Assembly (NCBI GenBank): GCA_963727625.1
Contig: CAVSHR010000002.1
Coordinates: forward strand, 320,001 to 384,000
DNA: 64,000 bases
Source of the DNA: an uncultured delta proteobacterium
Lineage (GTDB): Bacteria > Desulfobacterota > Binatia > UBA9968
Reading direction: 5' to 3'
The notes beneath the pieces are model-generated. The model searched no databases. It was not told the DNA's origin and was given only the letters and a program-made list of their open reading frames with translations. This document shows, in pieces, positions 20,368-35,910 of this stretch (position 1 is its first letter; every line of letters starts with the position of its first letter). The translations under genes were made by a program, and so were the position numbers.

Positions 20368-21798
20368 TTACTGGGGAGAGTCAAGTTGACGGATGTAAAC
20401 CAGTGCGGCTCGCAGGCGCCCAATCGTGCGCTCTTTACCGAGCACGGCGATGACCTCGTGAATCCCTGGGCTGACCGTGCCGCCGGTGAGCGCGACGCGC
20501 ACGGGCTGGGCGAGCTTGCCCATTTGAAGTCCGTGGGCTTCGAGGGTAGCGGTAAAAGCTTTCTCGATTGCAACTGCGTCGAACGTGGCAAGGGCGTCTA
20601 AATTTCGGATCAAACTTTCGATCGGCGCGGCGACGTCCGGCGTCAGAAGCTTTTTCGCCGCCTTTTCATCCGGGGTTATTTCGTCGCTCAAATAATAACG
20701 CGCGGCGTCGACCAACTCGGTGAGTGTCTTGGCGCGTTGTTGAAGCGTCGCGATCATCCGCTCCAGCCATTTCTTATCCTGCGGCACCGTCAGGCCTTTG
20801 GCCGCGATGTAGGGTTGGATTTCCTCGGCCAACTGGGCCAGCGAGCGGGATTTAAGATAGTGGAAGTTGACCCAGAGAAATTTCTCCGGATTGAAAACAC
20901 CCGCCGACTTGCCGACGTTCTCCAAGGAAAACTTCTCGACCAGCTCTCCGCGCGAAAAAATTTCCTGGTCGCCGTAAGACCAAGCGAGGCGCACCAGATA
21001 ATTGACCACCGCCTCGGGGAAATAGCCCATGTCGCGGTAAGCCATCACCGAAGTAGCCCCATGGCGCTTGCTGAGCCGCGCTTTGTCGGTACCGAGAATC
21101 AGTGGCACATGAGCGAATTGCGGCAGCTTGTCGCCGAAGGCCTGGTAAAGCTGGATCTGCCGCGGCGTGTTCGACAGATGATCATCGCCGCGAATGATAT
21201 GGGTGATGTTCATCTCGATATCGTCGACCACGACACAAAAATTATACGTCGGTGTGCCGTCAGAGCGGGCGATGATGAGATCGTCGAGCTCGCGGTTGTC
21301 AAAGACGACGTCACCTTTGATCAAGTCCTTGACCACGGTCGTGCCGTCGCTTGGCGAGCGGAAGCGAACGGTGAAGGGTCGGTCGATGGGCAGAGCGGGA
21401 ATCGCCCCTTCCGGCGGACGGCAGGTGCCGTCGTAGGCCGGTTTGCGTTTCTCTTTTTGCGCAAACTGACGCTTTGCGTCCAATTCCGCAGGCGTGCAGG
21501 TGCACGGATAGGCATTGCCTTTGGCAACCAGCTCTCTGACTTTCTCTTGATACAGTGAATAGCGTTCAGTTTGGTAGAACGGCCCTTCGTCGTAATCAAG
21601 TTCCAGCCAATTCATTGCGTCCAAGATCGCTCGGATCGCCTCCGGTGTGGATCTCTCGCGGTCGGTGTCCTCAATTCGCAGGATAAATTTGCCGCCATGG
21701 TGGCGCGCAAAAAGGTAGTTGAAAAGCGCGGTGCGCGCACCGCCGATATGCAGGTGGCCGGTCGGACTGGGAGCAAAACGGGTGCGAACTGGAGTCAT
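20368..21798 (-). CDS. gltX: Glutamate--tRNA ligase
   Basis: RFAPSPTG, HIGG, RIEDTD and RLSKRHGA motifs. Confidence 0.97.
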   Translation of the reverse strand: MTPVRTRFAPSPTGHLHIGGARTALFNYLFARHHGGKFILRIEDTDRERSTPEAIRAILDAMNWLELDYDEGPFYQTERYSLYQEKVRELVAKGNAYPCTCTPAELDAKRQFAQKEKRKPAYDGTCRPPEGAIPALPIDRPFTVRFRSPSDGTTVVKDLIKGDVVFDNRELDDLIIARSDGTPTYNFCVVVDDIEMNITHIIRGDDHLSNTPRQIQLYQAFGDKLPQFAHVPLILGTDKARLSKRHGATSVMAYRDMGYFPEAVVNYLVRLAWSYGDQEIFSRGELVEKFSLENVGKSAGVFNPEKFLWVNFHYLKSRSLAQLAEEIQPYIAAKGLTVPQDKKWLERMIATLQQRAKTLTELVDAARYYLSDEITPDEKAAKKLLTPDVAAPIESLIRNLDALATFDAVAIEKAFTATLEAHGLQMGKLAQPVRVALTGGTVSPGIHEVIAVLGKERTIGRLRAALVYIRQLDSPQ

Positions 21799-21804
21799 GG
21801 CGGT

Positions 21805-21833
21805 AAGCTAACAGGGCGCGGAAAAAGCGTCAA
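21805..21833 (-). promoter_or_regulatory. Sigma70 promoter of gltX (leaderless geometry)
   Basis: TTGACG-N17-TAGCTT-N6-ATG on the minus strand. Confidence 0.55.
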
Positions 21834-21895
21834 TGACGCATTAAAAATACGTTTTGATTATGCTATCATCGAGCGATCGTCGAGGAGAAAAGCCT

Positions 21896-23638
21896 GTGGA
21901 CACTAAGGCAATGGGGGATGACGCTAGACCGGTGGTGGGGAGCGGCGATGGCGTGCCCTCTCATTTTATTCGCAATATTGTCACCGAAGATCTCAAACAA
22001 GGCAAAAACCAGGGCCAGGTTCACACCCGGTTTCCGCCTGAGCCCAACGGCTATCTACACATCGGCCACGCCAAATCCATTTGCCTGAATTTCGGCTTGG
22101 CGGCGGAATTCAACGGACTCTGTAATCTGCGATTCGACGATACCAACCCGAGCAAAGAAGATGTCGAATACGTCGGGTCGATCAAGGAAGACGTCCGCTG
22201 GCTCGGCTTCGACTGGGGCGACCGAGAGCTTTACGCTTCGGACTATTTCGAGCGGCTCTTCGAGTTCGCCATTCAGCTGATCAAATCCGGCAAGGCGTTC
22301 GTCTGCGATCTGAACGCCGACCAGATGCGCGAATATCGCGGCACGCTGACCGAACCCGGGACAAACAGCCCCTTTCGGGATCGCTCGGTCGAAGAAAACC
22401 TTGATCTCTTCCAGCGCATGCGCGCGGGCGAATATCCCGACGGCAGCCGGACCCTGCGCGCCAAGATCGACATGGCCTCGCCCAATATCAATCTTCGCGA
22501 TCCGGTCATGTATCGTGTCTTGCGCGCGACCCACCATCGCACCGGCAACAAGTGGTGTGTCTATCCAACTTACGATTTCGCCCACGGGCAATCGGATTCT
22601 ATCGAAGGCATTACCCACTCGATTTGCACTCTGGAGTTCGAGGACCACCGCCCGCTCTATGATTGGTTTTTGCAGCACCTTGGGATTCACCACCCGCAGC
22701 AGATCGAGTTCGCGCGCTTAAATCTCACATACACGGTGTTGAGTAAGCGCAAGCTGCTGCAGCTGGTGCAGCGAAAAATTGTCAACGGCTGGGAAGATCC
22801 GCGCATGCCGACTCTGGCGGGCATGCGGCGCCGAGGTTACACGCCGGAGGCGATCCGCAATTTCTGCGAGCGCATCGGTGTGGCCAAAAGAAACAGCGTG
22901 GTCGATATCGCCATGCTGGAGCATTGCCTGCGCGAGGACTTAAACAAGCGCGCGCCGCGGGTTATGGCGGTCCTGCGGCCGATCAAAGTCGTGCTGGAAA
23001 ATTATCCGGAAGGGCAGGTCGAGGATTTGGACGCAGTCAATAACCCTGAAGACCCGAGCATGGGCACGCGTAAGGTGCCGTTTTCACGCATGCTTTACAT
23101 CGAACAGGATGATTTTCGCGAGGAGCCGCCCAAGGGTTTTTTTCGTTTGTCGCCGGGTAAGGAAGTCCGCTTGCGCTACGCATTTATCATCAAGTGCACC
23201 GGCCTTTCCAAAGATCCGAGCACAGGGGCTATTACCGAGCTTCACTGCACCTATGATCCCGAAACCAGGAGCGGTTCAGCGCAGAGCAAACGCAAGGTCA
23301 AAGCAACGATCCATTGGGTATCGGCGGCCCACGCCGTCGGAGCCGAGGTCAGACTCTACGACCACCTCTTCACCAAAGAGGACCCGGAGGATATTCCCGA
23401 AGGGGCGGATTGGCTCGCGAACGTCAATCCGAAATCTTTAGAGCGGCTGGCATCCTGCCGTGTGGAGCCCTGTCTCGCCAACGCAAAACCCGGCGAACGA
23501 TACCAGTTCGAGCGGCTGGGTTACTTCTGCGTTGATAGTGAGGAGTCTTTCGCGACAAAGCTGATTTTCAACCGATCGGTGACCCTGCGCGACACCTGGG
23601 CCAGGATGGAGAAGGGCGGCAAGGGGGCTCGTTCCTAG
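21896..23638 (+). CDS. glnS: Glutamine--tRNA ligase
   Basis: [30 protein letters not shown] and FERLGYF motifs. GTG 21896 follows GAGGAG. Confidence 0.96.
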
Positions 23639-23676: not shown

Positions 23677-24714
23677 TCATTCGCCGACGACCAAGGCTTG
23701 GCCGCCCGAGAGCCCCAGACATTCTTTCTCAAAGAGAGGTTTTGCGTCGACGTAAGATTCCACGATTCCCAGGCGATGCAGCAGTTTGATGATCTGAAAA
23801 GCCACGTCGATCTGGCCTGGAAGAAAGCCGTTGTTTGCAGAAAACGGGTACTTGTGGTGGTTGTCGTGCCACTCGGAAGCAAGATAGCCGTAGAACCATT
23901 GATTAAGAGCGTAGCTACTGTGATCAAACTCCCATCCGACTTTTTTGCCTCTCGGTTGGTTTCCTCCGTGGCCCCGCCAATTAAAATCACGGATCAAGAA
24001 AGTGATAAAAAAAATCGCCGCAAACCAAGCCCATAGGATATCGGAACCGTAAATCAGGAAAATACTAACTCCCCAAAATAGCTGAATGAAAGCTACACGG
24101 AAGAGGTAATATCTCAATTCCTCCACAGCGCCGGAACGTAAGAACTGTGCATAGCTGCTAGTTTTAAGCGGGATATGGGCGATGCTCGCGCATAACGTAG
24201 CATATTCCGCTGCAGAAATATTAGTATCTGTTTTTTGGGCTGATTCAGGGGCAAGGTAGCTGCCAAGCCATCCTAGATGTGGGCCGTAAGGGTCCCCAGG
24301 CTTTTCGGTTCGCTGATGATGAATCATGTGGGGAATGGCGTAGCATTCTTCCCGAAATAAAATCGGATTCGTCCAAAGAAACAATTTAGCAAAAAAATTG
24401 TTGTTAAATCGAAACGCGGCATGCGAACAATAACGGTGATACCAGAGGGTATTGTAAACAGTTCCGAGCACAAATACGGAAATCAGCATGAAAACAAGAG
24501 ATTGGATTGATATTCGCGCTATTAAAAAATATACGCACGCGACGAATGTAGAAAGATGAAACGCAAAATTTAGCACGGTTAAAGCACGAGAGGGATGCTT
24601 AACCACATTCATAGCATCACACCATTCGATTATGATTTCTGTTGTCGAGGGTGAGTGAGGTTTAGCGCTTGACGTGTCATGGCCAAACGTTGGCTCGATT
24701 ATCGGCAATTTCAT
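23677..24714 (-). CDS. Membrane fatty-acid desaturase (delta-9-like)
   Basis: His boxes HRYCSH, HMIHH and WHDNHH, plus TM segments. AT-rich. Confidence 0.9.
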   Translation of the reverse strand: MKLPIIEPTFGHDTSSAKPHSPSTTEIIIEWCDAMNVVKHPSRALTVLNFAFHLSTFVACVYFLIARISIQSLVFMLISVFVLGTVYNTLWYHRYCSHAAFRFNNNFFAKLFLWTNPILFREECYAIPHMIHHQRTEKPGDPYGPHLGWLGSYLAPESAQKTDTNISAAEYATLCASIAHIPLKTSSYAQFLRSGAVEELRYYLFRVAFIQLFWGVSIFLIYGSDILWAWFAAIFFITFLIRDFNWRGHGGNQPRGKKVGWEFDHSSYALNQWFYGYLASEWHDNHHKYPFSANNGFLPGQIDVAFQIIKLLHRLGIVESYVDAKPLFEKECLGLSGGQALVVGE

Positions 24715-25088
24715 TTAAGCAGATACCATTGAGGTGTGACGATTCTCTTCAAAACACTTCACATGGCGCTAGCCTTGCCCGTGCTGATTTGAATTTACAC
24801 TATCTATCGAAAATCTAGTAAAGATGTCAATCGGAGTTGCTGCAGCTGAGGGAATGTTCCTTCGGATATCGAAGCTTCAAGATACGCCCGGCCACGGACG
24901 TTGTCTGTGTTTGCGAGTCAGCAGGGTAACTTCAAAAGGATATGTCCTGCCGAATTTACGGATAAACAGAATCTACAACACGTCGTTCGATTGTTTTCGC
25001 TTGAGTTTTTATGCGAGAAGATTTTTGCAGAAACGACTACCCGTACGCCGCACCGACGTGACAAGAGCCTGAAGATAGCACCAGAGAT

Positions 25089-26408
25089 TTAGAACCTATA
25101 GTTTACCGAAGCTGCAACAAAATTGTTGAAAGTTGTATACCTGTCTTTGCCCGGCGCGCCGCTGAAGGGTATTCCAGTTGCCGGTAAGCCCTCTAATTCT
25201 CCGTTATTTACTTTTCGAGTTTTGTAAAGAACGGCCATATAGCCAAAATCAAGAGAAATTTTTTCCCATTTATAGCCGATTCCAGCGTTTAACGTCAGTA
25301 TGTCTCCGCCGGGTATGGCCGGATTTAAGGTCTTAGCTGGGATTGGCGTTTCCTCGACCGCAAGCCCTCCCCGGAGCTCCCAGTGAGGACTCAGCTTATA
25401 CGAGCTGCCCAAACGTAGCGTGCTCGTATTTTTCCAATTCTGTGGCAAACTGAAAGACGCGATCGGCAAGCCGAGAAGAGGAAGAAATCCGGGTGCCGGA
25501 GACAGAGTAGCGTTGAAACTCTTGAACTCGCTCCATCTCGTGTATTCATAAACTAATTCTGCGCTCCATGCCGGATCAATTTGCCAAAAAATTCCCACGT
25601 CAACTATTGGTGGCAATGGAATCGGTCTGACATTTGCTTTCACACTTGTCGGTGTGAAAGCGCCTCCAAACTTCGCGTCCGCCGAGTCGAAGCGGATGTC
25701 TGTTCGGGCACGATAAGTTAAACCTATTTTTATCACTTCAGTCGGCTTTACAAGAAGTCCTAGATTGTAAGTAAAGGCATTCGCGGTGTCAGTAACTCGA
25801 AGTCGTCCCTCAAATGTGCCACCCTGGGTAGCGCAGCCGCCATCGGCCAAAAAAGCATCGAGGCATAGAGAGCGGGTGAATAATCCCGATGCATGCACAT
25901 AACTGACACCGGCGCCCACGGAAAAATACTTTGATGGATGCCACGCGATACTGGGAGTTACATAAATTGTTTTGAGTTCGCTTCGATTAGCTGCAAACCG
26001 AGTAAAGTCCCGTTCGTATGTGGTGGCAAGACCAAAGGGCGAATAAGTCCCTATCCCTAGAGTGAAGTCGCTGCCCGGAATATGGTAGTTTGCGAACATT
26101 GACGCTATCAGATTGTCGTCGTGTTTGTTGACGGCTTTTCTCCCGCTATTTTCAACGCTGTTGACGGCATTGATGTAGACACCGTTGATCATCAGATTGT
26201 TTCCCGAGACCTCACCTAACGCGCCCGGATTGTAATAAGTGGCCGAGGCGTCATCTATGCCTGCGGTGAGAGCATTTGACAAAGCGACGCCGCGGGCCGT
26301 TTGATGCGGGATGATATAACCTCCGGCACTTACGCTCGGTATCCCATGGAAGATAAACGAGCCTGTTGTAATCACACAAATCAAGAAAATATTCGCTATT
26401 TTAGTCAT
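25089..26408 (-). CDS. FadL/OmpP1/TodX outer-membrane long-chain fatty-acid channel
   Basis: Signal peptide, DDASATYYNPGAL hatch motif, YSPFGL, YTRWS, C-terminal YRF. Confidence 0.9.
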   Translation of the reverse strand: MTKIANIFLICVITTGSFIFHGIPSVSAGGYIIPHQTARGVALSNALTAGIDDASATYYNPGALGEVSGNNLMINGVYINAVNSVENSGRKAVNKHDDNLIASMFANYHIPGSDFTLGIGTYSPFGLATTYERDFTRFAANRSELKTIYVTPSIAWHPSKYFSVGAGVSYVHASGLFTRSLCLDAFLADGGCATQGGTFEGRLRVTDTANAFTYNLGLLVKPTEVIKIGLTYRARTDIRFDSADAKFGGAFTPTSVKANVRPIPLPPIVDVGIFWQIDPAWSAELVYEYTRWSEFKSFNATLSPAPGFLPLLGLPIASFSLPQNWKNTSTLRLGSSYKLSPHWELRGGLAVEETPIPAKTLNPAIPGGDILTLNAGIGYKWEKISLDFGYMAVLYKTRKVNNGELEGLPATGIPFSGAPGKDRYTTFNNFVAASVNYRF

Positions 26409-26451
26409 TTAGCGTCCCTTATGGCATTTTGTATCCAACTCGTGTATAGCG

Positions 26452-26477
26452 TTGCTAAGTACTGCCAAAGTTTGCCA
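26452..26477. promoter_or_regulatory. Three direct repeats at 10-bp period in the divergent fadL/HTH spacer
   Basis: TTGCTA (26452), CTGCCA (26462), TTGCCA (26472). Confidence 0.45.
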
Positions 26478-26488
26478 TATGAGATATA

Positions 26489-26689
26489 ATGATGCAAGAA
26501 AAATTATTGACAATTGAACAGGTCGCGGCGTATCTGAAGGTCGACAAGTTCACTGTCTATCGTTTGGTTACAAAGCGGAAACTCCCCGCATTCAAGGTCG
26601 GGAACCAATGGCGCTTCAAACGGGAAATTATCGATGCTTGGCTGGAAAACAATTCTAACATGAAAGTAAGGGACGATAAGGCTCGCTAA
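26489..26689 (+). CDS. Small HTH_17 (Xis/BldC-like) DNA-binding protein
   Basis: LLTIEQVAAYLKV..TVYRLV..KLPAFKVGNQWRF pattern. Confidence 0.9.
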   Translation: MMQEKLLTIEQVAAYLKVDKFTVYRLVTKRKLPAFKVGNQWRFKREIIDAWLENNSNMKVRDDKAR

Positions 26690-26696
26690 TCATCCG

Positions 26697-27263
26697 ATGA
26701 AAACCATACTTGTGGGAGCACTTTTTACATATGGCATTGCGAGGCTTCTCGAAACCTTCAAAAAACGACCCAAGGTTCAAGGGCGAGTGGTTGCACCTTA
26801 CACCCTCTATCTTTTGGTGGGCGGACATATAGCAGTATTTTTGGCGGCTTTGCATGACGTGCGGAATCTTACGCCACAACTCGGCGCAGCGAATTTTGTC
26901 GGGCTCGCAATGGTAGTCGTTGCAGCGATCGGTCGTTTCTACTCGATAAAGACGCTGGGCCCGTATCATAGCATTCAGATTGAAATTCGAGAGAATCATC
27001 CGGTGATCAGCCACGGGCCCTATTTCTTTATTCGGAATCCTTACTACCTTAGCAACGCGATAGAGGTTGTGGGGTTTCCCCTCATAGTCAACTCAGTCCT
27101 CGGCACCGCCGTCGCGCTTTTGCTGTATTGGCCGTGCTTGTACTTGCGCGTCGTATTAGAAGAGCGGGCCCTGTTAGGAGCCATCAAGGCGCCGTTTTCC
27201 GACTATATGCACCGAGTGCCGCGCTTTGTTCCCACCGGGATTCGCGTTGGAGCATCGATATGA
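26697..27263 (+). CDS. Isoprenylcysteine carboxyl methyltransferase (ICMT/PEMT)-family membrane methyltransferase
   Basis: H.VISHGPYFFIRNPYY and EERAL...Y..RVPRFVP motifs, TM segments. Confidence 0.88.
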   Translation: MKTILVGALFTYGIARLLETFKKRPKVQGRVVAPYTLYLLVGGHIAVFLAALHDVRNLTPQLGAANFVGLAMVVVAAIGRFYSIKTLGPYHSIQIEIRENHPVISHGPYFFIRNPYYLSNAIEVVGFPLIVNSVLGTAVALLLYWPCLYLRVVLEERALLGAIKAPFSDYMHRVPRFVPTGIRVGASI

Positions 27264-28519
27264 ATGGACGGCTTCCTCGACGTGTAGTTGTCACCGGGCT
27301 GGGGATTTTATCATCCATCGGTATTGGTAAGCATGAGTTTTGGCAAGGGATTCGGTCCAATCAATGCGGTATCGGACCGATCACGCTTTTTAACGCCGAA
27401 TCTTTCACGGTCAGAATCGCGGGCGAAATCAAAGGTTTCGATGGCCATGATTTTTTCCCTCATGAGGTCGTGCGAAAGATCGACCGCTTCGCTTTACTTG
27501 GTTTAGCGGCTGCAAAGGAAGCAATCGGTGACTCGGGTCTGGAAGGCGAGTTCCGTAACGGCGCAGGTGGAAATGCTTGTGTTCTCGTCGCGTCCTCGAT
27601 CGGGGCACTGGCGCACGCGGAGCGGACCCATAAGATTTTTGTTGAAAAGGGATCGCGCAGAATCTCTCCATATTTTAATGCCAATGTAATCCCCAGCAGT
27701 TGCGCAACCCAAATCGCGCTGAAGTTTGGAATTCACGGAGACGTGCAAACGATCACCACGGCTTGTGCTTCCGGCACGACTGCCATCGGAGAGGCTTTCC
27801 ACAAGATTCGTGCTGGTCAAATTGACATGGCTGTCACAGGGGCATCGGAGACTCCCGTAACGCCGCTGGTAATTTCTACATTTTCCACCGTTGGTTTGCT
27901 ATCCACCGACAACGATTCGCCAAAGAGCGCCTGCCGGCCATTTAGTCGCGACCGCAACGGGACCGTTATTGCGGAAGGAGCCGGGATGGTCATATTGGAA
28001 GAACTCAATCACGCGCTATCGCGGGGCGCGCATATTTATGGCGAGATCATCGGCTATGGCTCGACATTCGACAGTTATCATGTCTTGCAGCCGTTGCCGA
28101 GCGCTCAATTCGCGGCGGAGGCTATTACAAAGGCGTTGGCCGACGGCGGGGTGATGCCGCAGGAGGTTGATTATTGCAATGCTCACGGCACCGCATCCTC
28201 ATTCAATGATAGAACTGAAACGATTGCGATCAAGCGGGCTTTCGGAGAGCACGCGCATCGTTTACCCATCAGTTCGACAAAGTCGCTTATCGGACACACG
28301 ATGGGTGCAGCTGGAGCCCTCGAATTTATCGCTTGCATTTTGATGTTAGAAAAGTGCTACATCCACCCCACACTGAATCTCCGCGAGCCTGATCCAGAGT
28401 GTGATTTGGACTATGTTCCCCTGCGTGGCCGGGAACAAGAATTGCGAACGGTCGTATCAAATTCTACAGGTTTCGGTGGATACAACGCTGCCTGCGTAAT
28501 CAGGAAATTTGAAAGATAG
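27260..28519 (+). CDS. Beta-ketoacyl synthase (FabF/KAS II-like)
   Basis: RRVVVTGLG, catalytic TACASG, NAHGT, KSLIGH, GFGG. ATG 27260 overlaps the upstream stop (ATGA). Confidence 0.92.
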   Translation: MNGRLPRRVVVTGLGILSSIGIGKHEFWQGIRSNQCGIGPITLFNAESFTVRIAGEIKGFDGHDFFPHEVVRKIDRFALLGLAAAKEAIGDSGLEGEFRNGAGGNACVLVASSIGALAHAERTHKIFVEKGSRRISPYFNANVIPSSCATQIALKFGIHGDVQTITTACASGTTAIGEAFHKIRAGQIDMAVTGASETPVTPLVISTFSTVGLLSTDNDSPKSACRPFSRDRNGTVIAEGAGMVILEELNHALSRGAHIYGEIIGYGSTFDSYHVLQPLPSAQFAAEAITKALADGGVMPQEVDYCNAHGTASSFNDRTETIAIKRAFGEHAHRLPISSTKSLIGHTMGAAGALEFIACILMLEKCYIHPTLNLREPDPECDLDYVPLRGREQELRTVVSNSTGFGGYNAACVIRKFER

Positions 28520-28524
28520 TTTCT

Positions 28525-30687
28525 TTGTACGCGCTCAACTTCATCGTCGGTGCTGTTTTCACCCTCGTCGCTGGCCTGTTTGTCTTTATTCGCGGCGAGT
28601 CCCGGTCCATGACGAGGCGGGCATGGCTTTTTCTTTGTCTAGCTACGAGTATTTGGCATCTCGGTCGTTTCCTGATTGCTATTTCCGGATCTCCGACGAC
28701 GGCAAACCGTGTTGTCTATTTGATCTATCTCGGCGCGATATTTATACCGCCTCTATACCTGCATTTCTCGCTTTCCTTGCTGAATGAAGAAACTGTCCAA
28801 CGTCGATATTTGGTTGTTGCCTATTCAATTGCTGGAATCGAAATAATTCTTTTGTTTAGCGGTCGTCTGACTTCCGGTGTTCGTTTGGACCCGGCTCTTG
28901 GGTACTATGAAATCCCGTCGACGATTTACATCTTGCATTTTTTGGCCTTTGTTCTGGTCCCGACGTACGGACTGTTAAAACTGGTAGCGCATTATCGCGC
29001 TAGCGATTTGCCGGTTAAGAAGAACCAATTAAAATACGTGATCTTTGCCAGCTTGATCGGGTTCCTTGGTGGTGGCACTTCGTTCTTGCCGATAATTCAA
29101 GCGCCAATTCCGCCTTTTGGTGCACCGCTAACCTATTTTTATACATTTCCAATTGCGTACGCGATTGCGCGTTACCGATTAATGGATATCGGCGTTGTAT
29201 TGCGAAAGGGGCTGATTTACGCGCTGCTCCTCCTCGCGTTGCTGGCGCCCTGTTTCGCGGTGGTGGTGATCAGCCAATATTTCGTCTTCGGAAGCATCAG
29301 CTATTCATTCTCAATCATAACTCTATTCTTGTTGACAGTTGTCGGATTCTTATTCCCTAAACTTCGATTCAAAACGGAAGACGCGCTTGAGCGCGCCCTA
29401 TTTAAGAAAAAATCAGATTTTCGAGAAACACTCCTCCAGTCAAGTAGAGACATGGTCTCGATTGTCGACATCAGAGCTCTTTCAAACAACCTCGTCCAAA
29501 CGATTGGCAAGTCCCTTGGAGTGGAGAAGGTCTCTTTGCTGCTCAAAAATGAGACTAATGGAAGCTATCGATTGGAGGCGTTTGTCGGGTTGAATTTTGA
29601 TCTGCCTGAAGGGGTTTCTCTATCCAAGGACGGACCCTTGATTCAAATTCTTCAAAGCAGACGGGAAGGGATCGTTAAAGAAGAACTTGAATGGGTGCCG
29701 GTCGGCCCCAACACTCCCAATACTATCGATACGATGGCCAAATTAGGCGCGGAACTCAGTTTGCCAATTATTTCGAAGGAGAAACTCATCGGGATCCTTA
29801 ACCTCGGCCAGAAGGATGACCAAACCATCTATTCCAGCGAAGACTTGGAGCTTCTCTCGACATTGGCAAATCAGGCGGCGATTGCGATCGAGAACGCGCG
29901 CCTTTATGAGAACCTAAAACAGTCTCAAGATACTCTGAGACGTGCGGATCGGCTGTCGTCCTTGGGGCTGCTGACCGCGGGTCTGGCCCATGAAATTCGC
30001 AACCCTTTGGTGGCGATCCGGACTTTTACCCAGTTGCTGCCGGAGCGCTACGACGACGCCGAGTTCCGCGAGGGTTTCCAGGGGCTCGCCCTTAAGGAAG
30101 TCGATCGGATTTGCGGCCTAATAAGCGATCTTTTGAGCTTTGCACGCCCATCTAAACCGAATGTGGCCCCAGAAAACATCAACGACATCGTCGACAATAT
30201 CGCGCGGATTCTGGAGACCCAGGCGAAGGAAAAAAATGTCGAAATTGTTCATGATTTTGGCGCCGATTTGCCCAAGGTGTGGATTGACAGAGAGCAGATG
30301 AAGCAGGTATTTATGAACCTCATTCTGAATGCTATTCAGGCCATGCAAGAAGGTGGATCGATCAGTATCGCGACCCGCGCAGTATCAAGGAGCGGAACTG
30401 AACCTTCAGGAGAATTCGTGCAGATCGAAGTTCGCGACACCGGCATCGGAATCCCGGAAGCAAATTTGCAGCATATTTTTGACCCTTTCTTTACCAGCAA
30501 GGACGAAGGCAGCGGGTTGGGTCTAGCAGTGTCGCATCAGATCGTGCAAGAACATGGCGGCTTTGTTACCGTCGAAAGCACGAAAGGTAAGGGAACCGCA
30601 TTTTTTGTCCATATTCCTATCGGCAAGCCGAACCGTTCGGCGAACAGTCTGCGCGCTCAAGTGAATGAAGCGAATCTTAGTCATTGA
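28525..30687 (+). CDS. Membrane sensor histidine kinase (HisKA_7TM-like N-terminus, GAF, HisKA, HATPase)
   Basis: About 9 TM segments with YAIARYRLMDI, GAF (YSSEDLELLSTLANQAAIAIENARL), AHEIRNPL, NLILNA, DTGIG, PFFTSK, GSGLGL. Confidence 0.93.
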   Translation: MYALNFIVGAVFTLVAGLFVFIRGESRSMTRRAWLFLCLATSIWHLGRFLIAISGSPTTANRVVYLIYLGAIFIPPLYLHFSLSLLNEETVQRRYLVVAYSIAGIEIILLFSGRLTSGVRLDPALGYYEIPSTIYILHFLAFVLVPTYGLLKLVAHYRASDLPVKKNQLKYVIFASLIGFLGGGTSFLPIIQAPIPPFGAPLTYFYTFPIAYAIARYRLMDIGVVLRKGLIYALLLLALLAPCFAVVVISQYFVFGSISYSFSIITLFLLTVVGFLFPKLRFKTEDALERALFKKKSDFRETLLQSSRDMVSIVDIRALSNNLVQTIGKSLGVEKVSLLLKNETNGSYRLEAFVGLNFDLPEGVSLSKDGPLIQILQSRREGIVKEELEWVPVGPNTPNTIDTMAKLGAELSLPIISKEKLIGILNLGQKDDQTIYSSEDLELLSTLANQAAIAIENARLYENLKQSQDTLRRADRLSSLGLLTAGLAHEIRNPLVAIRTFTQLLPERYDDAEFREGFQGLALKEVDRICGLISDLLSFARPSKPNVAPENINDIVDNIARILETQAKEKNVEIVHDFGADLPKVWIDREQMKQVFMNLILNAIQAMQEGGSISIATRAVSRSGTEPSGEFVQIEVRDTGIGIPEANLQHIFDPFFTSKDEGSGLGLAVSHQIVQEHGGFVTVESTKGKGTAFFVHIPIGKPNRSANSLRAQVNEANLSH

Positions 30688-32551
30688 CGAATCGGAGGTT
30701 GTCCGGGAGACCTTGGCGCTCATTCTTGGGAGGGAATTTGACGTCGTAAAGCGACCCCTTAGCACACGGGATTTCCCACTCGCCGCGGCGCGCGAAGCGG
30801 TCGACCTACTCATCCTCGGTGTGACGCCACAGTTGGGAATGGAGACGGCAGCGTTGTTGCGTTTTGCCGCTCAGTTGCCCTTCGCGATGCTATTGTTGGT
30901 GGATTCGAAAACGGTAGCGCGGGCGATTCAAGAAGAAACAGAGATCGGTTGTCTCACCAAGCCTTTCAATCCCTACGAGCTCCATGAAAAAGTCGCGAGC
31001 TTGCTGGCGCGGCGGATGTCGTTTCCGAAGCCGGCCATTTTGCGTGGCGCGCCGGAGCCGAAAGATTGCTCGGCTTATTTGGATTTCCCTTTTCTCAGCC
31101 GGAGCGCGGCGCTGCTGGCGCGACGCTTCGCGGCGGCGCGCTTGCCGCTGCTGATCTCCGGGGAGCTGGGTTGCGGCCAAGATCAAGTGGTTTCTGGAAT
31201 TTGCGGGCTCGATAACCTGTCAAATTTACGGCTCACCATCAACGCCGCCGAGGCGAGCGCCGAATACCTGACTCAAAAGCGCCACCAGCTGTCGTTGCAA
31301 GCGGAATTCGATACAACGTCGATCACACTGGTCATTGAAAATCTCGACAAGTGTTCGCCGGCTGGTCAGTCTCTGCTATTGAATTTCTTGGCGGAGGCAG
31401 AGGGTAAAGCGACCGGCATCCACTACTTGACCACGGCCCATGCAGACCTATTGGAAAAAGTTTATCGCGGCGAGCTGCTCGATGCCTTGTACTACAAGTT
31501 GGCTACGCTGACGCTGAAATTACCGCCCTTAAGGGAACGGTTGGACGATTTGCCGGTTTTGGCCGATTGGTTTGCCCGCGACTACGCTAGAAAACTTGGA
31601 TTGCCCGAGCCTACTATTTTACCGGAAGCGCATCTGCGGTTGAGAAATTACCTATGGTTCGGCAACTTGAGGGAAATGGAAACCGTATTGGCGCGCACCC
31701 TGGCGTTTCACCGTCAACCGCAGATCGACGGCGCCGATCTGATTTTCGATTTCAGTCCGATGCCGCAAGCGGGCCCGCTCAGCAATAGCGCTGAGCTTGC
31801 GCCCAGCGGCACTCAAACGGACCGAGCAGAAGCGGAGCCGAGGCTGGAGATTTATCGCGGCGCGCAGGCTTCCAACGGTTCCATCAACGGCCACGCAAAT
31901 TCGGTCGAATTAAACGCGGTTATTCATGAGCTCGCCCACGAATTCAAGAATCCCATGGTGACGATCAAAACCTTCGCGCAGTTGTTGGGGGACCGTTATC
32001 AAGACGAGAATTTTCGCACCCGTTTTCAAGAAGTGGTCGGCAACGACATCGAACGAATGGACGATCTCCTGGAAGTGATGATCGAATTCGCCGATTTCGC
32101 CCAACCCCGCTTGAGCAAGGTCGCGCTCGGCGAACCGCTCCGCACCGTGTTGACGGAACTCCACGGCGTATGCGCCAAGCGGCAGACCCGCTTCGAATGG
32201 AAGGGTAACGGCGCCACGGAAGCGGTGCAGGCGGACGAATCGCAGCTCGGCTACATCTTGAAAAATGTCATGCTGATGGCTCTTTCTGAGGCCAGAATGG
32301 GCAGTGAGATCGAGATCGACGTTTCGACACGGGGCGCCCTGGTAATCCGCTATCTGCGCGAAAGCGCGCGGGTGGCGTCGATCTCGCAATACCTGAACGA
32401 AGTCGGATCGGGGATGAAGGAGGGCATTCTTCCGCTGCGCGTGTTGCTGGCGAAGTATCTATTGGAAAGAAACGGTGGGCGCTTCGCGATCGATGCGTCC
32501 GACCGCGAGAAAGAAACCCTGAGAATGGAGTTCCCGATTGCAGAGCGCTGA
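30665..32551 (+). CDS. Degenerate REC-sigma54-AAA-HisKA-HATPase fusion protein
   Basis: Degenerate REC, Walker A altered to GELGCGQD, no GAFTGA, but LYYKL, LPPLRER and WFGNLREM retained. Intact H-box AHEFKNP; ATPase lacks G-boxes. Confidence 0.8.
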   Translation: MKRILVIDESEVVRETLALILGREFDVVKRPLSTRDFPLAAAREAVDLLILGVTPQLGMETAALLRFAAQLPFAMLLLVDSKTVARAIQEETEIGCLTKPFNPYELHEKVASLLARRMSFPKPAILRGAPEPKDCSAYLDFPFLSRSAALLARRFAAARLPLLISGELGCGQDQVVSGICGLDNLSNLRLTINAAEASAEYLTQKRHQLSLQAEFDTTSITLVIENLDKCSPAGQSLLLNFLAEAEGKATGIHYLTTAHADLLEKVYRGELLDALYYKLATLTLKLPPLRERLDDLPVLADWFARDYARKLGLPEPTILPEAHLRLRNYLWFGNLREMETVLARTLAFHRQPQIDGADLIFDFSPMPQAGPLSNSAELAPSGTQTDRAEAEPRLEIYRGAQASNGSINGHANSVELNAVIHELAHEFKNPMVTIKTFAQLLGDRYQDENFRTRFQEVVGNDIERMDDLLEVMIEFADFAQPRLSKVALGEPLRTVLTELHGVCAKRQTRFEWKGNGATEAVQADESQLGYILKNVMLMALSEARMGSEIEIDVSTRGALVIRYLRESARVASISQYLNEVGSGMKEGILPLRVLLAKYLLERNGGRFAIDASDREKETLRMEFPIAER

Positions 32552-33971
32552 AATAAAAAATGACATGAACCAGCCGCGGCTTTTGGTTGTCGATGACGAG
32601 GTGGGGGTGCGGCAGTCCCTGCAAATGGTTTTCAACAAGAATTACGTTGTTTTCGAAGCGTCCTCCGCCGACGAGGCGATTCAAAAAACCACCGAAGAAA
32701 AACCAGACGTCGTTCTATTGGACATCATGATGCCCGGCACCGACGGTCTCGCCGTGCTAAGACACATCAAGTCCATGCATCCCGACTGCCAGGTGATCAT
32801 GTTGACGGGTCTCAATACCGCACGTACGGCATTCGTCGCCAAGAGCACGGGCGCCTTCGACTACATTACCAAACCCTTCGATGTGGAAGAGCTGCGTCTC
32901 AAAGTGGAGCACGCGCTCGAGAAAATTCTCTTGTCGCGCGAGCTGGAGCGGTTGAAAGAAGAAGTTGGCCGAAAGTACGGCATCGAGCATATTATCGGCA
33001 AATCAGAGCAAATCGTCGACGTGTTCAAGGCCGTGAGCATGGTGGCGGCGAAAAAAACCACAGTGCTCATTACCGGAGAAAGCGGCACGGGCAAGGAGCT
33101 GATCGCGCGGGCGGTTCATTTCAACAGCGATCGGCGCTCGAAGCCGTTCGTCGTGGTCAATTGCGCGGCCTTGCCGGACACGCTGATCGAGAGCGAGCTG
33201 TTCGGTTACGAGCGAGGGGCGTTCACCAACGCGTCGCAGAAAAAGATCGGGCGGTTCGAATTGGCCCATGGCGGCACGCTGTTTCTCGATGAGATCGGCG
33301 AGCTGAATCTTGGCACCCAGTCAAAATTTTTGCGCGCCGTCGAGCAGGAGACTTTCACCCGGCTCGGCGGCACCGATGAGATCAAGGTTGACGTTCGGGT
33401 CATCGCCGCTAGCAATCGGGACCTCGAACAAATGGCCAAGAATGGGGAGTTTCGCCCCGACCTGTTTTACCGGCTGAACGTTGTATCCCTATTTCTTCCG
33501 CCGCTGCGCGAGCGGCGCGACGATATCGCGCTGTTGCTCGATCATTTTTTGCGGCTGAAGGCCCAAGAACATTCCATCGCGACCAAAACCTTATCTTCCG
33601 AGGTGGTTGATTTTTTCACGTCCTACCCATGGCCGGGTAATGTTCGCGAGCTGGAAAATCTCATCGAGCGGCTCACCATTTTAACTCCCCACGAAACCGT
33701 CATGCTGCGCGACCTCCCGATTGGGATGCGCTCGACCGATCAAACCGCGACGCTCAAAGAAGACGTGTTGAACGGCTCGCGGCCCCTTAGCGATGCCGTG
33801 GACGAGTTCGAGCGCGAGCTGATCGTCAAAGCCTTGCAGCGGACTGGCTTCAATCAGACCAAAGCCGCATCGCTGCTCGGAACCAGCCGGCGCATCCTCA
33901 AGTATCGGATCGAAAAGCTAAAGATCAATGACCCCAATGATATCGAACCGGAAGTGAAATTATCGCCATAA
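32538..33971 (+). CDS. NtrC-family sigma54-dependent response regulator
   Basis: REC (VVDDE, LLDIMMP, KP), GESGTGKE, ESELFG, GAFTNA, FLDEI, WPGNVREL, Fis-type HTH. Start may be ATG 32565. Confidence 0.95.
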   Translation: MQSAEIKNDMNQPRLLVVDDEVGVRQSLQMVFNKNYVVFEASSADEAIQKTTEEKPDVVLLDIMMPGTDGLAVLRHIKSMHPDCQVIMLTGLNTARTAFVAKSTGAFDYITKPFDVEELRLKVEHALEKILLSRELERLKEEVGRKYGIEHIIGKSEQIVDVFKAVSMVAAKKTTVLITGESGTGKELIARAVHFNSDRRSKPFVVVNCAALPDTLIESELFGYERGAFTNASQKKIGRFELAHGGTLFLDEIGELNLGTQSKFLRAVEQETFTRLGGTDEIKVDVRVIAASNRDLEQMAKNGEFRPDLFYRLNVVSLFLPPLRERRDDIALLLDHFLRLKAQEHSIATKTLSSEVVDFFTSYPWPGNVRELENLIERLTILTPHETVMLRDLPIGMRSTDQTATLKEDVLNGSRPLSDAVDEFERELIVKALQRTGFNQTKAASLLGTSRRILKYRIEKLKINDPNDIEPEVKLSP

Positions 33972-34061
33972 CCGGACAAATTTGTGCTGCGGGTTCTCGC
34001 CGAACACCTCGTTTTATAAAATTCACATTTAATATTAATGGCTTGAGTCGACTCTGGCGGG

Positions 34062-34077
34062 TGGCATATTCCTTGCT
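34062..34077 (+). promoter_or_regulatory. Sigma54 promoter candidate
   Basis: TGGCATATTCCTTGCT (GG-N10-GC with TTGC), preceded by an AT-rich tract at 34010-34040. Confidence 0.65.
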
Positions 34078-34091
34078 CGACTTTGCTGCCC

Positions 34092-35213
34092 ATGGATACC
34101 ACCAAACCGAACATCTTAGTGGTAGATGACGAAATGGGCCCGCGAGAATCACTCAAGATGATTCTCAACCCCTATTACAACGTTTACACCGCCGACCGGG
34201 GCGCACAGGCGGTCGAGATGCTCAAACAGTTCCCGGTCGATCTAGTCACTTTAGATCTCAAGATGCCCGGATTTAGCGGTATCAATGTCCTGGAAAAGGT
34301 CAAACAGCATGACCCGGACATCGAGGCGATCATCATCACGGGATACGGCTCCTTGGACACCGCGATCGAAGGGCTGCGGCTCGGCGCCTTCGATTACATT
34401 TCCAAACCCTTTGACGTCAATCATATTCTAGCGCTGGTGCGCCGTGGCTTGGAACGACGCAATGCCAAGGCGCAACTTCGACAGGTCAAATCGGATTTTC
34501 TCTCCAATATTTCGCATGAATTGAGGACGCCGCTCAGCGTGGTTGTGGGCTTCGTATATCTGTTGCTCAATCAGGTGATCGGCAAGCTCACCGAGGACCA
34601 GCAAAAGGTTCTCGAAACCGTCTATCGCAACTCTGAAGAATTGCTCGAGTTGATTGACAACGTGTTGTGGATGACTTCGCTCAACGCCGGTGATGCGCAA
34701 GCCACGCTGGAAAAATTCGACGCTCGGGGTTTGGTCAACGAGACGGTGAAACGATTCGAAAAATCGATTCGCGAAAAAGGTTTGCGGCTTGATATCCAGA
34801 TGGCCGACGGAGACATATCGATTGTCAGCGACCGGGCCAAGGTCGAGCGGGTTTTTCATAACGTTTTTAACAACGCGGTCAAGTTCACATCCGAAGGCGA
34901 GATTACTGTAGCGGTGCACCCTTCCTCGCGCCGGGACAGCGTTGAATTTGAAGTCATCGATACCGGAATCGGTATTGACGAAAGCAAGATCGACTCGATT
35001 TTCGAGCCCTTTCACCAGGCCGATAACTCGACGCAGCGATCCTATTCGGGACTCGGGATCGGCCTTACCGTTGCGCGCAGAATGGCGGAGTTGGTGGGTG
35101 GCAAGATTGCTGTGCGCAGCAAGCCGGGCGTGGGAACACGGGTAACGATGGCGTTTCCGTGCCAAGCCTCTGCGGCAGTGCCGTTGGCCGTCGAACAGCG
35201 CAAGTATGGATGA
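34092..35213 (+). CDS. Hybrid REC-histidine kinase (cytoplasmic)
   Basis: REC (VVDDE, LDLKMP), FLSNISHELRTPL, NNAVKFT, DTGIG, GLGIGL. Confidence 0.93.
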   Translation: MDTTKPNILVVDDEMGPRESLKMILNPYYNVYTADRGAQAVEMLKQFPVDLVTLDLKMPGFSGINVLEKVKQHDPDIEAIIITGYGSLDTAIEGLRLGAFDYISKPFDVNHILALVRRGLERRNAKAQLRQVKSDFLSNISHELRTPLSVVVGFVYLLLNQVIGKLTEDQQKVLETVYRNSEELLELIDNVLWMTSLNAGDAQATLEKFDARGLVNETVKRFEKSIREKGLRLDIQMADGDISIVSDRAKVERVFHNVFNNAVKFTSEGEITVAVHPSSRRDSVEFEVIDTGIGIDESKIDSIFEPFHQADNSTQRSYSGLGIGLTVARRMAELVGGKIAVRSKPGVGTRVTMAFPCQASAAVPLAVEQRKYG

Positions 35214-35910
35214 TCATTGTTATATCTGGTGCCGCAACTGCGGCGCCGTTCATCACGTCAGCGCATTCGATCGCGAGCCGATTTACAGCTTTGCCGGTGG
35301 CGAAGTTGAAGAAATGCCCGCCAACGATTGGCGTGACTTCATGGACCGGCACGCGGGTCATCGCTTAGAGCCCCTGAAAGCCACCGGTGACGATTACTTT
35401 CCCGGCGGTAAAGCTTTTGACCCGATGAGCGCGGGATATATCGAGGTTAGCAACGGCACCGAGACCCTGCTGTTGCGCCGCAGCCGGTCAACGATTGAAG
35501 AGCCGTTCCATTATGAAATTGTCAACGGCCGTTTGGTTCAGACCGGCGTGAGCTTGGAAGTGCAAGAAGAGGCAATCCGCAAGGAGATGAAATTGCATTT
35601 CTGCTGGGCGCCGGGCGCGCCGCTCGCAGACGCAAAGATCGCGCGCTTTGTCGCTTTGTTTCGCGAAGTCGTTCGCGAGATTGATCCCGATGCGGTTTGC
35701 GAAAGCGGATATTCCGACGCGGATGACAACGTTGTCTACTGCCGACTTCACGTTGCGGTCATTGAAGCCTTGCTCGATCAATGCAGCCGCCACTTTCATC
35801 CGGCCGAATTGGTTTCATTGCGCCGCTTCATCGAGAGCCACCGCGACAGTGATGACGTGATGGCGTTGGTAAAACGGCGCGCTGTTTCAATCGAGCGGGT
35901 CGCTCACTAG
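35206..35910 (+). CDS. Hypothetical protein with putative metal-binding CxxC...HxxH motif
   Basis: WCRNCGAVHH and FMDRHAGH. Start overlaps the kinase stop. Confidence 0.75.
   Translation: MDDHCYIWCRNCGAVHHVSAFDREPIYSFAGGEVEEMPANDWRDFMDRHAGHRLEPLKATGDDYFPGGKAFDPMSAGYIEVSNGTETLLLRRSRSTIEEPFHYEIVNGRLVQTGVSLEVQEEAIRKEMKLHFCWAPGAPLADAKIARFVALFREVVREIDPDAVCESGYSDADDNVVYCRLHVAVIEALLDQCSRHFHPAELVSLRRFIESHRDSDDVMALVKRRAVSIERVAH

Follow-up and report, generated by a model that had tools for sequence, protein, structure and literature searches.

A sigma-54 relay locus of uncultured Binatia with exchangeable enzyme and kinase membrane-domain cassettes: a candidate lipid-signalling family

Do lipid-type enzymes that are encoded directly in front of a multi-pass sensor kinase make the molecule that this kinase reads? 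The question is raised by a gene cluster at positions 23,677 to 35,910 of a 64,000-nucleotide (nt) stretch of DNA, hereafter the window, from an uncultured delta proteobacterium (Desulfobacterota; Binatia; UBA9968; GenBank assembly GCA_963727625.1, contig CAVSHR010000002.1, positions 320,001 to 384,000). A preliminary description had grouped a ketosynthase (KS), an ICMT-family methyltransferase, a desaturase and a FadL channel of this cluster with a membrane kinase and a sigma-54 cascade as a lipid-signal system. Comparison with related loci showed that the enzyme gene and the membrane domain of the kinase are jointly exchanged as a unit among close relatives. On the strength of these comparisons, we consider it evenly balanced whether the enzymes make a hydrophobic ligand that is read by the co-inherited membrane domain, with specificity types like those of agr and phc. 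The lipid-signal proposal is supported in part, among other things by the covariation of the KS with the kinase membrane domain; the desaturase and FadL proved not to be co-inherited with them.

Protein families were assigned from Pfam and NCBIfam model scores on open reading frame (ORF) translations. W denotes the window's own locus, L-numbers denote homologous loci, G000 is the source genome, and C-numbers are its contigs.

Joint exchange of an enzyme gene and a kinase membrane domain

The sensor kinase (28525-30687, + strand) combines HisKA_7TM, GAF, HisKA and HATPase domains in Pfam and has about eight hydrophobic segments up to residue 283. Its HisKA_7TM membrane part comprises residues 1 to ~275 (28525-29340, + strand; PF16927 at residues 8-222). 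Directly upstream lies a FabF-like KS gene of what we term cassette type I (27260-28519, + strand; PF00109 and PF02801). When species-representative genomes were scanned with the kinase, 80 loci were returned, 48 of which shared generic kinase or activator domains only. The other 32 (L001-L032, the near loci) shared a frame consisting of glnS, a divergent FadL gene, HTH17, a variable block, the kinase core, a dead AAA+/DHp fusion (the pseudo-activator), an activator, a REC-kinase and a CCHH protein. They came from metagenome-assembled genomes labelled delta proteobacterium, Binatia, Syntrophobacteraceae and others. The contig of L001 is labelled Chloroflexota, while its proteins are 74-92% identical to those of the window over the whole operon, which suggests a mis-binned contig or a very recent transfer.

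The type of input could be read in 26 of the 32 near loci. Sixteen had a KS with a 7TM-GAF kinase, and L001, L010, L011 and L015 had an ICMT gene in addition. The slot before the kinase was occupied in L005 and L023 by a 500-residue protein belonging to no named family (L005:8337-9824 and L023:8262-9884; no Pfam match). These two enzymes are 56% identical to each other and have 380 unnamed homologues, and their family shows many invariant His, Cys and Asp residues. Part of the fold is like class II aldolases (Foldseek E 3e-4, TMt 0.45-0.52); a protein-atlas search with the L005 enzyme gave no usable match. Two further inputs (L017 and L014) had a LuxD-like acyltransferase fused to an S-adenosylmethionine (SAM)-dependent methyltransferase; because of the contig start, L014 retains just the methyltransferase part. 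A methyl-ester theme recurs in the slot, through ICMT repeatedly and through the acyltransferase-methyltransferase fusion of L017. The remaining six inputs (L021, L022 and L024-L027; e.g., L026:6229-10774) consisted of a VTC-domain protein, an MFS transporter, a PhnD-like binding protein and an sCache-HAMP kinase, whose core was 73-86% identical to that of the window kinase. Because the whole input end was replaced in these six loci, the same cascade accepts a non-lipid input module.

Within the loci that keep the KS, divergence was concentrated in the enzyme and the membrane domain. Among the 12 near loci holding all parts, pairwise identity averaged 50% for the KS (range 34-85%) and 45% for kinase residues 1-290 (range 31-84%), compared with 78% for kinase residues 461-720 and 84% for the activator (72-96% among near loci). 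Type I comprised W, L001-L004, L010 and L032, with L005 joining by its transmembrane (TM) domain; type II comprised L006-L008 and L031, with L018 by TM domain; type III comprised L011-L013 and L015, with L009 by TM domain; and type IV, defined by TM domain only, comprised L014 and L017. In the set of about 30 close relatives, the KS and kinase residues 1 to ~275 were 31-51% identical between types, and the remaining kinase and the activator were 60-96% identical. Each type formed a starred clade in the TM tree (20 rows; residues 1-290) and in the KS tree, and the sub-clades of type I were also concordant between the two trees. The TM domains of L005 and L023 were mutually closest and were 52-60% identical to the type I TM domain.

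The backbone of the cascade told a different history. On a tree of GAF, kinase core and activator, the types required 8-10 changes, compared with means of 8.7-9.6 for shuffled labels, and starred sister pairs joined loci of unlike type (L002/L007, L032/L018 and L005/L031). Approximately unbiased (AU) tests on 17 rows (LG+G4, quick search; L014 excluded, L010 and L015 without full activator) rejected type I (p 1.3e-49) and type II (p 5.5e-54) as backbone clades. Mantel correlations between KS and TM distances were 0.91 for near loci and 0.80 for far loci, with 0 of 2,000 permutations as high; between KS and kinase core they were 0.01 and 0.26, respectively, and the partial correlation of KS with TM was 0.81.

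Nucleotide comparison located the borders of the exchange. L002 (type I), L007 (type II) and L015 (type III) were 87-95% identical on both flanks and had zero nucleotide similarity between the end of HTH17 and approximately kinase codon 270, and L005 and L031 behaved alike. HTH17 forms the left border of the variable cassette, with similarity between sister loci stopping directly after the gene. Across 12 pairs of unlike type, kinase identity was 10-45% to about residue 220, intermediate to 280 and high from about 281. The right-hand border was thus alike in all 12 pairs, and it marks the exchanged part of the protein as the HisKA_7TM domain (Pfam residues 8-222). A search of the cassette borders for direct or inverted repeats gave nothing meaningful.

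The association between enzyme and kinase also extends far beyond these close relatives. Kinase residues 1-460 were searched in 401 sampled genomes of the phylum (E<=1e-5), and 243 of them matched the N-terminus, with about 50 strong full-length matches. The 29 best loci from other genomes were analysed as a distant set, with kinase N-termini 29-41% identical to that of the window. A KS lay directly upstream of the kinase in 18 of the 29, two of which had ICMT as well; five had ICMT alone, and six had neither, three of these being ended by the contig end. In wider flanks, a KS was found further upstream in four of the five loci scored as having only ICMT. The preliminary description would have given up its proposal if orthologs of the kinase usually lacked the lipid genes; 23 of the 29 distant loci keep KS and/or ICMT. 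Conservation of the enzyme-kinase adjacency is shown by these loci. Two gene orders recurred, KS-kinase and (FadL)-KS-SDR-ICMT-kinase, the second of them, with FadL, also in a complete genome of 2.54 Mb (G039), and the slot otherwise held a radical-SAM enzyme with a methyltransferase (one locus) or an SRPBCC protein (two loci). Downstream, the distant loci carried the dead fusion, the activator, a receiver protein (REC-HD-GYP in five of the six scanned) and a CCHH homologue, so that the full cascade recurs in other families of the phylum. HTH_17 was not detected in the distant loci at E<=1. In one of them, L122, a 951-residue kinase (L122:8735-11590) matches residues 1-230 of the window kinase twice in its N-terminus, and its membrane domain appears to be duplicated.

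FadL and the desaturase, which the preliminary description had counted among the genes of the system, did not share this inheritance. The desaturase-like gene was present as a gene in 1 of the 32 near loci (L005; a 10% fragment remains in L003), and FadL, found in 19 of the 32 including class B loci and loci with a sensor module unrelated to lipids, had two sequence types that did not match the KS types. FadL adjoined the KS in the distant loci L120, L121, L122 and L130. Judged by this distribution, the accessory role is general for FadL and strain-specific for the desaturase-like gene, and both presumably lie outside the specificity unit. FadL (25089-26408, - strand, divergent from the operon) is a FadL/TodX-family (Toluene_X) outer-membrane channel that passed the gathering score of PF03349 with 211.1 bits over positions 8-421 of 421; against the Escherichia coli FadL equivalog it reached 91.6 bits, with a cut-off of 585. 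The desaturase-like membrane protein (23677-24714, - strand) reached 31.5 bits against the DesA model NF049918, which has a cut-off of 400, and had no Pfam family even at E<=10 and no sequence match in PDB. Three His boxes (HRYCSH, HMIHH and HDNHH), which we take to be the mark of a desaturase, were visible in its translation when read by eye and unaligned. Its earlier naming as a desaturase is weakly supported: no curated desaturase model, Pfam family or PDB sequence bears it out.

Enzymes, relay and output genes of the locus

The KS is close to FabF in score and distinct from it in descent. Its 485.7 bits against the FabF equivalog TIGR03150 fall just below the cut-off of 493.75, and it passes the broader subfamily model NF005589 (467 versus 387). 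The motifs ACASG, NAHGT and TKSLIGH align with the genome's FabF copies, and the Cys, His and Lys-His residues, which we take to be the catalytic ones, are all present. Across 42 aligned ketosynthases, the catalytic Cys was kept in 41 and the first His in all 42. The window enzyme thus looks catalytically intact and active, to judge by these residues. G000 holds four FabF-like genes and one polyketide synthase (PKS) module, and the window KS ranks third by score. In a tree of 37 ketosynthases, a starred branch (98*) set the kinase-linked enzymes apart from the 648- and 557-bit copies. Compared with housekeeping FabF (KAS II), the window enzyme shares the fold, the Cys-His-His motifs and a score near the equivalog cut-off, but it is only the third-best match, falls in a separate clade, has no fab or carrier neighbours and adjoins a kinase. 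By clade and context, it is evidently not the housekeeping FabF copy. The fourth FabF-like gene of the genome (433 bits; G000:C9:335756-336985, L136) falls within the polytomy of kinase-linked ketosynthases and has no sensor kinase within 10 kb.

Upstream of the KS lies the ICMT-family membrane methyltransferase (26697-27263, + strand), which scored 53.7 bits against PF04140 (gathering score 24) and matched the ICMT chains 5v7p (8e-7) and 4a2n (1e-5) in PDB. It stayed well below the protein-isoprenylcysteine equivalog NF040696 (52.8 bits, cut-off 160), and it also matched PEMT (38.4 bits) and, weakly, a lipid A methyltransferase model. ICMT is an optional member of the cassette, carried by W, by the near loci L001, L010, L011 and L015, and by 7 of the 29 distant loci. 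The operon begins with HTH17, a small HTH_17 (excisionase/MerR-type) DNA-binding protein (26489-26689, + strand; PF12728 67.8 bits, TIGR01764 62.5 bits).

Two proteins with AAA+ domains follow the kinase. The pseudo-activator (30665-32551, + strand) has, by Pfam, a weak receiver, a degenerate sigma-54 AAA domain and HisKA. In the window protein, Gly stands in place of the acceptor Asp and Gln in place of the Walker A Lys, which sets it apart from true sigma-54 activators. The same decay runs through the family: the GAFTGA loop was found in none of 40 members, the acceptor Asp was replaced wherever a receiver exists, and near members share the Lys to Gln change in Walker A. The H-box AHExKNP was nevertheless kept in 32 of the 40. 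The gene for this protein was missing in the sister group L002, L007 and L015, where the other cascade genes were intact. The activator itself (32538-33971, + strand; REC, Sigma54_activat and HTH_8; PF00158 235 bits) is of NtrC type, with a receiver (PF00072), an AAA+ domain carrying the motifs GESGTGKE, GAFTNA and LFLDEIGE, and a Fis-type HTH (PF02954). It reached 336.8 bits against the LuxO NCBIfam model, far under the cut-off of 800. PrsK/PrsR of the PEP-CTERM system was considered as an identity for the kinase and activator and rejected, as both scores were below cut-off (TIGR02916 147.1 versus 300; TIGR02915 406.3 versus 502.6).

Between the activator and the next gene lies the sigma-54-type promoter TGGCAT-N5-TTGCT (TGGCATATTCCTTGC; 34062-34077, + strand), which matches the pattern with one mismatch within a 111-nt gap. 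Over the whole window, the pattern gave 62 matches with up to two mismatches, where 71 were expected, so only positional conservation counts as evidence. Scoring at least 9 of 11 positions against TGGCAC-N5-TTGCA, we found the motif just upstream of the receiver gene in W, in 27 of the 29 near loci with that gene and in 11 of 13 distant loci. The promoter that the preliminary description had placed at 34062 is thus a real match at a conserved position. In an alignment of 28 loci upstream of the receiver gene, a near-palindrome (GGACAAATTTGTGC; 33974-33987, no strand assigned), an A/T-rich stretch and an ATG were conserved. The near-palindrome, conserved at the 80% level and situated about 90 nt upstream of the promoter, is a candidate binding site for the activator. 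The conserved ATG (ATGGA) stood 14-16 nt after the -12 element in 26 of the 28 loci and corresponds to 34092 in the window, which implies a very short leader, that is, a nearly leaderless sigma-54 transcript, with translation starting at 34092.

The promoter precedes two genes. One encodes a REC, HisKA and HATPase protein by Pfam (34083-35213, + strand, with 34092 the likelier start), and the other the CCHH protein (35206-35910, + strand), which has no match in Pfam or NCBIfam. C9, C12, H49 and H52 of the CCHH protein were invariant in 25 sequences, and all of its 810 homologues are unnamed. Its AlphaFold 2 (AF2) model has a pLDDT of 88.9. Foldseek against PDB returned nothing at E<=0.001, and a wide structural comparison gave a best Z of 6.0, to C-terminal helices only.

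Spacing within the cluster is tight. HTH17 and ICMT are separated by 7 nt, ICMT and KS overlap by 4 nt, KS and kinase are 5 nt apart, the kinase overlaps the pseudo-activator by 23 nt, and the pseudo-activator overlaps the activator by 14 nt; after the 111 nt before the REC-kinase gene, this gene and the CCHH gene overlap by 8 nt. The single operon with gaps of 7 nt or less, the named gene families apart from the desaturase, and the view that this is not a housekeeping fab operon all held when examined, the last because no carrier or fab genes are nearby. Of the genome's 35 PP-binding matches, not one falls inside the window (C2:320001-384000), the closest being at C2:219805 and C2:541283. Long ORFs rich in carrier domains occur at C4:1.53-1.63 Mb, C2:541-546 kb and C7:65-90 kb of G000, and the source organism, judged by the 35 matches, seems rich in clusters of the nonribosomal peptide synthetase (NRPS)/PKS type. 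G+C content from 23.7 to ~30.7 kb is 0.44-0.55, below that of the flanks (0.55-0.59), which is suggestive only. Upstream stands a back-to-back pair (20368-23638) of a GluRS-type synthetase gene (- strand) and a GlnRS gene (+ strand); in relatives, glnS marks the left end of the locus as a conserved anchor. A scan for promoters and terminators returned counts at the shuffled level (10 versus 10.2; 20 versus 17.2) and was not used as evidence. Among the sequencing runs listed, none was an RNA run containing the organism, and four DNA runs contained it at small shares (0.06-0.11).

A ligand made next to its sensor, and the alternatives

We propose that the ICMT-type methyltransferase and the FabF-like KS, drawing on the cell's own acyl carrier pool, would make a hydrophobic acyl-derived molecule, which would be detected inside the membrane by the HisKA_7TM domain of the kinase whose gene follows directly, as co-inheritance of enzyme and domain suggests. 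The kinase core would then hand phosphate to the NtrC-type activator; the architecture for this step is seen, and the chemistry is predicted. The dead AAA+/DHp fusion, which retains only its histidine, may modulate the phosphate transfer. The activator would fire the conserved sigma-54 promoter at 34062, which would turn on the receiver-kinase and the CCHH zinc-motif protein, with a REC-HD-GYP protein as the likely receiver in most other families of the phylum. As near relatives have at least four deeply diverged, interchangeable types of enzyme and membrane domain, the most likely role of the molecule is that of a cell-to-cell signal whose specificity groups would resemble those of agr and phc. 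That the slot always holds a small-molecule or lipid enzyme was counted in favour of the ligand reading.

Several observations weigh against this proposal. A FabF-type enzyme alone releases no product, and the window is without a thioesterase or carrier protein. Seven of the 42 aligned ketosynthases have Gln, Asn or Ser in place of the second catalytic His. In no locus did a sigma-54 motif turn up ahead of the enzyme operon or of FadL, which leaves no visible autoinduction loop. The pairing of enzyme class with TM type is not strictly one-to-one, as the aldolase-like enzyme occurs with a type-I-related TM domain in L005 and L023, and the AU test leaves type III unrejected as a backbone clade (p 0.077). 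FadL is retained in class B loci without any lipid enzyme. The GAF domain, which is not co-exchanged, could bind a cytoplasmic ligand. Finally, the KS gene adjoins the 5' end of the kinase gene, and a single recombination tract moves both regardless of function.

One alternative is membrane-lipid homeostasis of the DesK/DesR kind. Here the 7TM domain would respond to how much of a special lipid is present or to the physical state of the membrane in which it sits, the co-transcribed enzymes, desaturase and FadL would be remodelling outputs or feedback partners, and nothing would exit the cell. The enzymes are indeed of membrane-lipid types, the ICMT protein matching PEMT and, weakly, a lipid A methyltransferase; no autoinduction promoter was found; and lipid genes cluster at the locus, among them the desaturase-like gene in W and L005, an SDR gene in L023 and, in L003, an acyl carrier protein (ACP) with a second KS. 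(The L003 genes lie at L003:6769-8309 on the other strand between FadL and HTH17, and their KS is 43% identical to that of the window.) Homeostasis gives no reason, however, for swapping discrete, deeply diverged enzyme and sensor types among sister genomes. The same slot is filled elsewhere by an acyltransferase-methyltransferase fusion, an aldolase-like enzyme or a non-lipid module, and the sole conserved sigma-54 target in the locus is the receiver and CCHH pair, not a lipid gene. We regard this account as unlikely. Improbable, in our judgement, is a second one, in which the slot enzyme is the kinase's protein partner, docks on the cytoplasmic face of the membrane domain, reports the supply of acyl-ACP or malonyl-ACP and co-evolves with the kinase at the interface. 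Such an interface would equally give covariation of KS and TM domain, the KS and kinase genes, 5 nt apart, are translationally coupled, and there is a precedent in the synthase CqsA, which is reported to inhibit its receptor kinase CqsS by binding to the intracellular domain (bioRxiv 10.64898/2026.05.05.722802). The homologous membrane domains, however, stand beside unrelated folds (KS, ICMT, acyltransferase fusion and aldolase fold), which makes a single docking interface unlikely, and catalytic residues are kept in nearly all ketosynthases. Both mechanisms are reported to coexist in CqsS, so that docking need not exclude a ligand.

A third account is linkage without function. The kinase would sense an unrelated cue through its membrane or GAF domain, and the enzymes would hitchhike when recombination replaces the fast-evolving sensor end. 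Co-transfer is the default for adjacent DNA, the VTC-MFS-PhnD module with its sCache-HAMP sensor can take the place of the whole input end (six near loci), and FadL varies too, independently of the KS. Yet the adjacency persists in many families of the phylum at 29-48% identity, far outside the reach of a single recombination tract; the borders repeat in independent pairs, on the left right after HTH17 and on the right at the TM/GAF junction; and KS and TM sub-clades are concordant even inside type I. Within the exchange data, only the recurring borders argue for a selected unit, and together with the deep conservation they would seem stronger arguments than co-transfer. We consider linkage of this kind very improbable.

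Likeness of logic to known systems and significance

The proposed ligand and its membrane receptor recall agr, phc and CqsA/CqsS, and these likenesses are of logic, not of family membership. The hypervariable region of Staphylococcus agr (AgrB/AgrD/AgrC/AgrA) is reported to comprise agrB, agrD and agrC, so that the genes for making the signal share one hypervariable block, with a few discrete allelic types, with the membrane sensor part of the kinase (PMC10482373). There, too, the kinase core and the regulator are conserved, and the relatives of the window show the same joint variation. Unlike the window locus, agr has a peptide signal, a LytTR regulator and a known autoinduction promoter; the window has lipid-type enzymes, an NtrC-type sigma-54 activator and a dead-activator fusion, and no autoinduction site was seen in it. 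In Ralstonia (PhcB/PhcS/PhcRQ), a methyltransferase produces a fatty-acid methyl ester for which a membrane kinase of the same operon is the sensor, and phcB and phcS are reported to be under balancing selection (PMC6580516). The acyltransferase fused to a class I methyltransferase in the enzyme slot of L017 is a further likeness. The window differs in having an ICMT-family membrane methyltransferase with a KS in place of a PhcB-type enzyme, and a sigma-54 output in place of PhcA.

Vibrio CqsA/CqsS-LuxU-LuxO offers a hydrophobic autoinducer inside the TM domain of a multi-pass kinase that feeds a sigma-54 activator: CAI-1 is reported to bind in the TM domain of CqsS, from which the signal passes to LuxO. 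The synthase and receptor genes of this system are adjacent. CqsA is a pyridoxal phosphate (PLP)-dependent enzyme and not a ketosynthase, and CqsS has a C-terminal receiver and works with LuxU, whereas the window kinase has GAF and is accompanied by the AAA+/DHp fusion. In Xanthomonas (RpfF/RpfC/RpfG), the fatty-acid signal DSF (diffusible signal factor) is read by a multi-pass kinase controlling a REC-HD-GYP protein, and a REC-HD-GYP protein is likewise the sigma-54-driven gene in distant relatives of the locus. The window, however, lacks a crotonase-type RpfF, has REC-HisKA-HATPase in place of REC-HD-GYP and interposes a sigma-54 step.

No description of this gene combination was found in the full-text literature searched, which excluded subscription journals and supplementary files. 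It is conceivable, with the chances somewhat below even, that the locus represents an undescribed family of lipid-based signalling between cells, spread through the phylum in uncultured bacteria labelled Thermodesulfobacteriota or Binatia, with exchangeable synthase-7TM specificity cassettes on a fixed sigma-54 relay, a dead-activator adaptor and a CCHH effector, as a lipid counterpart of the agr pherotypes. The synthase would be a FabF-like KS, accompanied or not by ICMT and SDR, or a non-homologous enzyme in its stead. What is known of quorum-sensing chemistry comes mostly from cultured Proteobacteria and Firmicutes; here, a putative maker and receptor pair in uncultured bacteria was marked by comparative genomics alone, which also pointed to the part of the protein that may bear specificity, kinase residues 1 to ~275. 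Sister genomes with types I, II and III are natural swap variants for studying cross-talk, and the activator with the 34062 promoter would make a compact reporter. Three uncharacterised families, namely, the AAA+/DHp dead fusion, the CCHH protein and the 500-residue aldolase-fold enzyme, are tied to one pathway. Should the ligand turn out to act within the producing cell, the locus would remain unusual for a modular sensor input that recombination exchanges.

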